Shown piece after piece: positions 2,463 to 3,078 of a stretch of 64,000 bases of DNA. Under the pieces are notes generated by a model, which did no database searches, was not told the DNA's origin, and saw only the letters and a program-made list of their open reading frames with translations. The translations under genes were made by a program, and so were the position numbers. The stretch is from an uncultured archaeon (GTDB taxonomy: Archaea; Asgardarchaeota; Hermodarchaeia; Hermodarchaeales; Hermodarchaeaceae). Positions within the stretch are counted from its first letter, which is position 1; each line of letters opens with the position of its first letter. The stretch lies in the NCBI GenBank assembly GCA_964347045.1, contig CAYFXC010000010.1:17312-81311 (forward strand), read 5' to 3'.

Positions 2463-2483
2463 CAATCTATTGTTACAAAAATT

Positions 2484-2588
2484 GCGAGCCGCGGACGCTA
2501 ACATCCGAGCAGATCAGTTCCGTCATCCGCCATGATGAGTGGCTCTGGTTAGGTGCATGTTCGTCATCGTCGACGTCCGCATGCTCAC
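2484..2588 (-). ncRNA. Box C/D guide sRNA candidate with extended terminal stem
   Basis: Minus strand: terminal stem, C ATGACGA, 13-nt guide, D' CAGA, hairpin, C' ATGACGG, 12-nt guide, D CGGA, stem, then a TTTTT tract. Confidence 0.65.
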
Positions 2589-2631
2589 TGAATAGGAAGT
2601 AATTCTTCCCTTTAGGAGTTTCTGAATCTCT

Positions 2632-3078
2632 TTACTCAGATTTTGGGGGTTTCATCAACTCTTTTTTGATAGCGTTCATGGTTAAAAGAGGTCTAAACAG
2701 AAAGTAGAAGAAGATCAAACCGACTAGAAACAGAACAATGCCTAGAATCTTTAGATAGAGGGCAAAGGGTCCAAAGGTAGTAAATACTATGGCGAGGGGT
2801 AAGAGCGCACTAATGATAGCGCGAATAATTGTGAGTAAAATGGCTTTTTGAGTGTCTTTGACAAAGAAGACAGCAAAATAACCGATAATGATGAAAAACA
2901 AGGTTATACCAGCAACAATGGTCAAATACAGCTCTTGGAACGTCGTCGGAAAGAATGCACCACCAATGAGTAGTATAAAGTAGATGACGATGACAATGAA
3001 AGTCCAATAATTAAAAGCACTGGTAAATTTTTTCAAATCTATCGTAGCTTTGGTTAATCGCGCTATGGGATCAGACAT
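2632..3078 (-). CDS. 4-TM membrane protein
   Basis: Four hydrophobic segments; GGAGG SD. Confidence 0.8.
   Translation of the reverse strand: MSDPIARLTKATIDLKKFTSAFNYWTFIVIVIYFILLIGGAFFPTTFQELYLTIVAGITLFFIIIGYFAVFFVKDTQKAILLTIIRAIISALLPLAIVFTTFGPFALYLKILGIVLFLVGLIFFYFLFRPLLTMNAIKKELMKPPKSE

Follow-up and report, generated by a model that had tools for sequence, protein, structure and literature searches.

In this work, we report a conserved element on the minus strand of an Asgard archaeal contig (positions 2588-2484 of the window, namely the whole stretch of 64,000 nucleotides that was analysed), and we propose, at a probability of roughly 0.8, that it encodes an independently transcribed box C/D sRNA of ~105-112 nt, extending from ~2588 to ~2477, that would act as a dual guide for helix 34 of 16S rRNA. 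The element is conserved beyond chance and is a real small RNA gene. It is most likely a guide RNA of the box C/D class, unusual in its architecture, and it most likely guides methylation on the two strands of helix 34; perhaps the RNA also chaperones the folding of these strands, a role that is compatible with methylation. From the sequence we infer the transcript ends, the protein binding, the methylation and the chaperone role that are described below. The first-pass annotation of this DNA had already read the element as a box C/D guide RNA, and this identity is upheld by the four boxes, spacers of ~12 nt, a closing stem, guides that pair over at least 9 bp and the presence of all three protein genes.

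Architecture of the RNA

Every coordinate and motif first assigned to the element (boxes, guides, hairpin, stem arms and T5) proved correct when the sequence was re-read. From 2588 to 2484 on the minus strand, an 18-bp terminal stem surrounds box C, a 13-nt guide, box D′, a hairpin, box C′, a 12-nt guide and box D, and the features are as follows.

2608..2622, minus strand: promoter-like box GAAACUCCUAAAGGG, conserved in an otherwise variable 44-nt gap; putative BRE/TATA element
2569..2588, minus strand: 5′ arm of the terminal stem, 20 nt (GUGAGC-A-UGCGGACGU-C-GAC), from sequence, fold and pair counts over 15 species
2561..2567, minus strand: box C, AUGACGA, with C replacing U at position 5
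2548..2560, minus strand: D′ guide ACAUGCACCUAAC, 13 nt, positions 4-12 pairing with 16S AGGUGCAUG (E. coli 1049-1057)
2544..2547, minus strand: box D′, CAGA, with GA invariant
2529..2543, minus strand: D′-C′ hairpin GCCA-CUCAUCA-UGGC, with compensatory changes in the closing pair and an invariant loop
2520..2526, minus strand: box C′, AUGACGG, with AUGA invariant
2508..2519, minus strand: D guide AACUGAUCUGCU, 12 nt, positions 1-11 pairing with 16S GGCAGGUCAGU (E. coli 1193-1203); N+5 is G1197
2504..2507, minus strand: box D, CGGA, with G replacing U at position 2
2484..2502, minus strand: 3′ arm of the terminal stem, 19 nt, from sequence, fold and pair counts
2477..2481, minus strand: T5 run, after AA beyond the stem; likely an archaeal oligo-T terminator

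Single nucleotides lie between the stem arms and the boxes, namely G between the 5′ arm and box C and U between box D and the 3′ arm, and GG lies between the hairpin and C′ (all minus strand). The fold energy of the minus strand is -41.4 kcal/mol (z = -2.3), and the plus strand reaches z = -1.1; no ORF of at least 40 aa overlaps the element, and no tRNA gene occurs in the window. The irregularities of the terminal stem are a single one-base bulge and one C·A mismatch, and a bulge-helix-bulge splicing motif is absent on inspection.

The hairpin between D′ and C′ would supply a closing helix, by which the C′/D′ motif would become a full K-turn instead of a K-loop. Its loop CUCAUCA (2533-2539, minus strand) is invariant in all 15 species; the UCAUC within it is able to pair with GAUGA of box C′, and the minimum-energy fold prefers this pairing over the GCCA/UGGC hairpin. 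Through the UCAUC/GAUGA pairing, C′ may stay hidden in an alternative fold before protein binding.

Conservation and covariation fix the RNA strand

The gene is present as a single copy wherever it was found; 13 of the 14 genomes of the genus carry it, and so does one of four of the sister genus. Nucleotide identity to the copies of the 14 other genomes is 78-97% and the flanks diverge, while in metagenome contigs of relatives the similarity is limited to 2476-2599, so that the element stands out as an island. A covariance model built from the 15 copies and searched, under stricter filters, in 151 Asgard genomes gave no match in the 132 genomes outside the genus and its sister genus.

Covariation in relatives had been named as a check on the proposed fold, and it bears the fold out. 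In the alignment of 15 sequences, 94% of the pair cells of the 18-bp stem are paired, and two pairs carry double compensatory changes, C-G to U-A and G-C to A-U; the hairpin likewise shows compensatory changes, its A-U closing pair becoming G-C in G012 and C-G in G017. The long terminal stem described earlier is thus real, supported by covariation and unusually long; calling it snoRNA-like is fair in comparison with archaeal sRNAs, although 18 bp exceeds typical snoRNA stems too. Many further stem changes are one-sided, and pairing is then saved through G-U only on the minus-strand RNA. Since the same pairs are A·C mismatches on the opposite strand, the RNA strand is the minus strand, as had been argued from the G-U wobbles of the single sequence.

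The boxes are conserved in relatives as well, and the K-turn G·A dinucleotides of all four are invariant across the 15 species. In box C both UGA and GA are invariant in 15/15 species; in box D′ the GA is invariant and the first two bases vary (CAGA, CUGA, CCGA, UUGA), the first of them covarying with position 6 of C′ from C-G to U-A. The spacer from C to D′ measures 13 nt in 13 species and 12 nt in two (G007 and G012), and that from C′ to D measures 12 nt, with 15 and 17 nt in two species whose extra bases lie toward C′.

Non-canonical boxes and K-turns

All species of the genus have AUGACGA as box C, and the sister genus has AUGAUGA; box D is CGGA in seven species, CUGA in seven and UUGA in one. 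Position 5 of box C and position 2 of box D consequently face each other as C-G in 7 of 15 species, as C·U in seven and as the canonical U·U in the sister genus. The deviations of the two boxes had been taken to compensate each other, and in the present genome the C-G pair at the usual U·U position of the K-turn is indeed real. But seven species keep AUGACGA together with CUGA, and hence the G of box D is a later change in one subclade and not an obligatory partner. By comparison of the species, the C-G pair arose stepwise, from U·U through C·U to C-G, and in this one subclade only.

Despite the deviating bases, tandem G·A pairs are possible beside the closing helices of both box C/D and box C′/D′. 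In this the motifs resemble the K-turns bound by L7Ae/Snu13/15.5K, in which sheared tandem G·A pairs are preceded by a three-base bulge (here GAU) and flanked by helices. Unlike those K-turns, the 3b·3n pair is here C-G or C·U instead of the U·U usual in C/D K-turns, and box D is separated from the stem by one additional unpaired base.

Both guides match helix 34 of 16S rRNA

The host MAG (83 contigs, 89% complete) holds no assembled 16S or 23S gene, so targets were taken from the 16S and 23S genes of relatives. For a neighbouring gene, the closest public records belong to MAGs of Candidatus Hermodarchaeota and Promethearchaeota. Positions follow E. coli numbering, which we take to be correctly anchored by the 1100 and 1392 primer sites, C1054, G1064 and C1192. 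Among these rRNA genes, the 16S of G006 (L032) spans 3.6 kb for 1478 model positions and has large insertions, and 23S segments of relatives (L040, L041) are 200-700 nt longer than the model; the insertions in L032, L040 and L041 are probably introns.

The best rRNA match of the D guide (guide 2) is 16S GGCAGGUCAGUA, with 11 contiguous bp (9 Watson-Crick and 2 G-U), at a site conserved in three relatives' 16S genes. Across species this guide pairs over 9-11 bp at E. coli 1193-1204, on the 3′ strand of helix 34, and N+5 falls on G1197 in 15/15 species, always in the same register beside box D, which withstands insertions of 3-5 nt toward C′. C-to-U and A-to-G changes, which retain pairing, make up most of its substitutions, and two species gain a new pair; one G-U pair lies directly beside the target base. 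Taken alone, this match is equalled by 19 of 500 shuffled guides. The target first suggested for guide 2, a 23S segment of type GACAGGUUGGAU near 2600, has to be abandoned, as it offers 8 bp with 3 wobbles, which is below the average of shuffled guides, and the 16S GGCAGGUCAGUA is a far better and conserved partner.

For the D′ guide (guide 1), the proposed pairing of 9 nt with helix 34 was recovered in relatives' genes, namely as 9 Watson-Crick bp with 16S AGGUGCAUG, its best conserved match; at least 9 nt of rRNA complementarity thus exist for both guides, which pair over 9-11 bp with relatives' 16S. Across species guide 1 covers E. coli 1047-1058 on the 5′ strand of helix 34. Its match is by itself not significant, with 58 of 500 shuffles doing as well. 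The predicted site moves with the D′ spacer, N+5 being G1050 with 13 nt (13 species including the present one) and G1051 with 12 nt (G007 and G012), and in the 13 species pairing begins only at guide position 4, which makes N+5 the second base pair of the duplex. In G012 two transitions in guide 1 are kept as wobbles and a new CUCU end lengthens the duplex to 11 bp, and in G017 one pair is gained at the 5′ end. A 23S site, AUUGGGUGCAUAG, scores equal to the 16S site of guide 1 in one species only; it was rejected, as its 10 bp exist in G006 and G008 has AUUGGAUGAGUAG there with the guide unchanged.

The two 16S sites lie ~150 nt apart, on both strands of helix 34, and none of 2000 shuffled guide pairs gave two matches of at least these scores within 250 nt.

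The D guide can also pair with the D-arm of tRNA-Ala, GGUAGAUCAGCG, with G10 at N+5, and if this were its true target the 16S match would be secondary. The pairing comprises 10 contiguous bp (8 Watson-Crick and 2 G-U) with two tRNA-Ala genes of the genome, and guide position 6 forms U-A there, as against U-G in 16S. However, the tRNA scores 22 versus 25 for the 16S site, the pair at position 11 is lost, and we know of no 2′-O-methyl G10 among archaeal tRNA modifications; a tRNA target would moreover leave unexplained that guide 1 lands in the same rRNA helix as the 16S match of guide 2. We consider this target quite improbable.

Slightly less improbable, though still unlikely, is that the C/D-type particle is mainly or only a folding chaperone for helix 34, which would keep hold of its two strands while the subunit assembles, much as eukaryotic U14 and U3 do on pre-rRNA, with little or no methylation. 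The two guides bind the two strands of one helix, and the D′ register, which differs by one base among species and pairs from position 4, is a poor geometry for methylation; such a role also fits the proposal of Dennis et al. that dual guides with targets close together in the folded rRNA act as chaperones (PMC4644070). Against chaperoning alone speaks the strict register of guide 2 in 15/15 species despite insertions, as a methylation ruler requires, and its predicted base G1197 is a known eukaryotic Gm site. We accordingly keep to a methylation guide as the main reading.

The antisense of relatives' 16S GGAGGUGCAUGGCCGUCGUCA reads UGACGA-CGGC-CAUGCACCUCC, namely a box C look-alike with C at position 5 followed by guide 1. 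It might be speculated that guide 1 and the odd box C descend from an antisense fragment of rDNA; the second long-stem sRNA described below also has UGACGA.

Genomic setting, transcription signals and protein machinery

The gene order is kept in all 15 loci, where an IF-2B-family gene, a 148-aa membrane-protein ORF and the RNA follow each other on one strand, the RNA always 40-50 nt downstream of the ORF (44 nt here). The ORF (2632-3078, minus strand) is hydrophobic, has no Pfam match and evolves much faster than the RNA, at 35-77% amino-acid identity. Around its last codons (2623-2662, minus strand) the sequence reads UGAUGA, 12 nt, CUGA, which gives a 14-bit sub-threshold snoPyro_CD match without the second half and is probably due to chance.

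The CCTAAA core of the promoter-like box GAAACUCCUAAAGGG lies ~26 nt upstream of G2588, the first base of the stem. The box is clear, with small changes at most, in 13 of the 14 species compared (G017 left out), and the most divergent species, G012, has only a degenerate GAAACCUCUUAAUCA in its place; a T-rich run beyond the stem is present in 14/14 of these species. The exact consensus occurs once in the genome, at the RNA locus, and as a probe for further sRNA genes it yielded no second locus by exact-consensus matching, which degenerate copies would escape. From the box and the T-run we infer that the RNA has a promoter of its own, starts at or close to the base of the stem and ends at an oligo-T terminator. 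One metatranscriptome contig of a relative (run X20) covers the element and was set aside as evidence for a discrete transcript, as it extends beyond the element on both sides and could stem from DNA or a longer RNA. Marsh and sediment metagenome runs were likewise not used as evidence of habitat, since only small shares of the stretch were matched.

The constant position of the RNA 40-50 nt behind the same ORF, on the same strand, would also suit a K-turn RNA with another job, for example a stability or regulatory element in the 3′-UTR of the membrane-protein gene, whose likeness to a guide would be incidental, and the degenerate boxes and the absence of Rfam matches at threshold agree with this. 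But a conserved TATA-like box separates the ORF from the RNA, the conservation of the two differs (35-77% amino-acid identity for the ORF and 78-97% nucleotide identity for the RNA), the spacer lengths, the four boxes and the dual rRNA complementarity suit a guide, and a second RNA of like design lies in unrelated surroundings. Of the explanations weighed here, a 3′-UTR element appears to us the least likely, and the RNA is treated below as a guide RNA with a putative promoter of its own.

The proteins of a box C/D particle are all encoded in the genome, with fibrillarin adjoining Nop5, plus L7Ae, and the Pfam models PF01248, PF01798 and PF01269 all score above their cut-offs.

Comparison with archaeal and Asgard sRNAs

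No Rfam family matches at gathering thresholds over the whole window, and the best sub-threshold scores (sR15, 14.5 bits versus a cut-off of 40; sR43, 12.8 versus 45) are at chance level; the element lies outside the sR15, sR43, snoPyro_CD, SNORD25 and SNORD33 families. With the sR families of Pyrococcus and Sulfolobus (snoPyro_CD, RF00095; sR15, RF01146; sR43, RF01128) it shares the order C, guide, D′, C′, guide, D, spacers of 12-13 nt, dual guides on nearby rRNA sites and the presence of L7Ae, Nop5 and fibrillarin genes. A typical archaeal sRNA has a terminal stem of few bp or none, and its 3-9 nt D′-C′ linker forms a K-loop. Archaeal box C/D sRNAs are 50-70 nt long (PMC7994747), whereas the present RNA has ~105 nt and an 18-bp stem, its D′-C′ linker is 17 nt long with a helix of its own, and non-consensus bases occur in all four boxes, with scores below the Rfam thresholds.

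A pattern search of 400 Asgard genomes returned mostly false matches. Those of family f6 lie within a protein-coding gene, as judged by third-codon-position variation, and the match in G207 equals, base for base, the reverse complement of relatives' 16S helix 34 and is most likely the antisense strand of its own 16S gene. Only the match in G169, a genome of another Asgard family, is a real sRNA (L162:1497-1553, plus strand), with a homologue in G168 (L193). This canonical 57-nt C/D sRNA reads AUGAUGA, ACAUGCACCAGU, CUGA, a 4-nt linker, AUGAUGA, CGUUCACGGU, CUGA and a short stem. Its first guide pairs over 11 bp with its own 16S GCUGGUGCAUGG (locus L191), placing G1051 at N+5, and the second over 9 bp with GCCGUGAAC on the 3′ strand of helix 34, N+5 being ~U1210.

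The G169 sRNA and the present RNA share the identical box C-proximal guide ACAUGCACC, which in G169 fits its own 16S CUGGUGCAUG, and both RNAs direct two guides at both strands of 16S helix 34. The guide thus tracks 16S between lineages (CCAGU versus CCUCU or CCUAAC). Unlike the present RNA, that of G169 has consensus AUGAUGA and CUGA boxes, spacers of 12 and 10 nt, a linker of 4 nt and a stem of ~4 bp, and its second guide targets ~U1210, not G1197. The dual helix-34 guide, as predicted for both RNAs, is hence not peculiar to Hermodarchaeota.

Within the genome, a strict-consensus double C/D pattern found no match, and relaxed scans gave 11 real versus 4 control and 9 versus 8 matches, of which only two were convincing. 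A second long-stem C/D-like RNA, outside the window (G000 contig C1, 48070-48160, plus strand; L143:1071-1161), has box C GUGACGA or GUGAAGA (never U at position 5), D′ UAGA, C′ AUGACAA and D CUGA, together with a strongly covarying hairpin, a 10-bp terminal stem, whose two arms show coordinated one-base deletions in the sister genus, and a T-run. Conserved copies exist in 12 of 14 genomes of the same genus and in two of four of the sister genus. A 23S match of its first guide, close to the sarcin-ricin loop, is confined to a single species, and for its D guide GGAUCUUGAGUG neither rRNA nor tRNA gave a match. A long stem, a helix-closed C′/D′ and degenerate boxes are thus common to at least two RNA families in this lineage.

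Comparison with eukaryotic snoRNAs

In eukaryotes, helix 34 carries two 2′-O-methylated guanosines, yeast Gm1271 (guided by snR40) and Gm1428 (snR56), which equal human Gm1328 (U32) and Gm1490 (U25) (PMC2794176, PMC8817022). In Dictyostelium, CD1 pairs with AACAG*GUCUGUG, where the starred G at N+5 is the equivalent of Gm1428/Gm1490, and CD37 pairs with GGUGG*UGCAU, where the starred base is the equivalent of Gm1271/Gm1328 (PMC8817022, supplement). G1197, the base predicted for guide 2, is the homologue of Gm1428/Gm1490, and the match is exact in all 15 species. The RNAs of that clan (SNORD25/U25, snR56, AtsnoR19 and CD1; RF00054, RF01188, clan CL00049) therefore share the predicted rRNA base with the present RNA, and the register is the same as that of CD1, the sequence here being GGCAG*GUCAGUA. 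Beyond what the target forces, no sequence homology is shown; the eukaryotic guides pair perfectly by Watson-Crick pairs, whereas the present guide has two G-U pairs, and the eukaryotic RNAs work from the D′ box, whereas the present RNA would work from box D.

For the other site, whose equivalent is G1051, the agreement is partial. The D′ guide covers the same stretch as the RNAs of the second clan (SNORD32/33, namely U32 and U33, snR40, snR55 and CD37; RF00133, RF01201, clan CL00054), and N+5 is the G 5′ of UGCAUGG (1051) in G007 and G012, whose D′ spacers have 12 nt, and in G169. In the other 13 of the 15 species, including the present one, the 13-nt spacer places N+5 one base upstream, at G1050. 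A further difference is that both helix-34 guides reside on one RNA here and on separate snoRNAs in eukaryotes.

[quoted passage not shown] It is conceivable, although we hold it doubtful, that the Asgard ancestor already had C/D RNAs guiding the two helix-34 methylations that are common to all eukaryotes, and that the RNAs of Hermodarchaeota and of the G169 type would be surviving relatives of the ancestor of U32/snR40 and U25/snR56.

Proposed function and implications

Based on these comparisons, we propose that a single particle could serve both strands of helix 34. First, L7Ae would bind K-turn 1, formed by box C and box D and closed by the 18-bp terminal stem, and K-turn 2, formed by C′ and D′ and closed by the internal hairpin, and Nop5 and fibrillarin would then assemble onto the RNA. 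By pairing with the 3′ strand of helix 34, the D guide would put G1197 fifth from box D for 2′-O-methylation, and the D′ guide, paired with the 5′ strand, would put G1050 or G1051 at the target position. One particle gripping both strands of the helix would probably also aid folding of the 3′ major domain.

No survey of Asgard box C/D RNAs turned up in the literature covered, and sRNA finders that are tuned to the sRNAs of thermophiles would overlook Asgard guides of such build. If the shared ancestry with the eukaryotic clans is true, the long external stem and the helix-closed C′/D′ K-turn would be an archaeal case of features usually deemed eukaryotic. If the predictions are true, a single Asgard RNA would serve both helix-34 sites of the decoding centre, and it would provide a concrete and testable tie between archaeal and eukaryotic rRNA modification.
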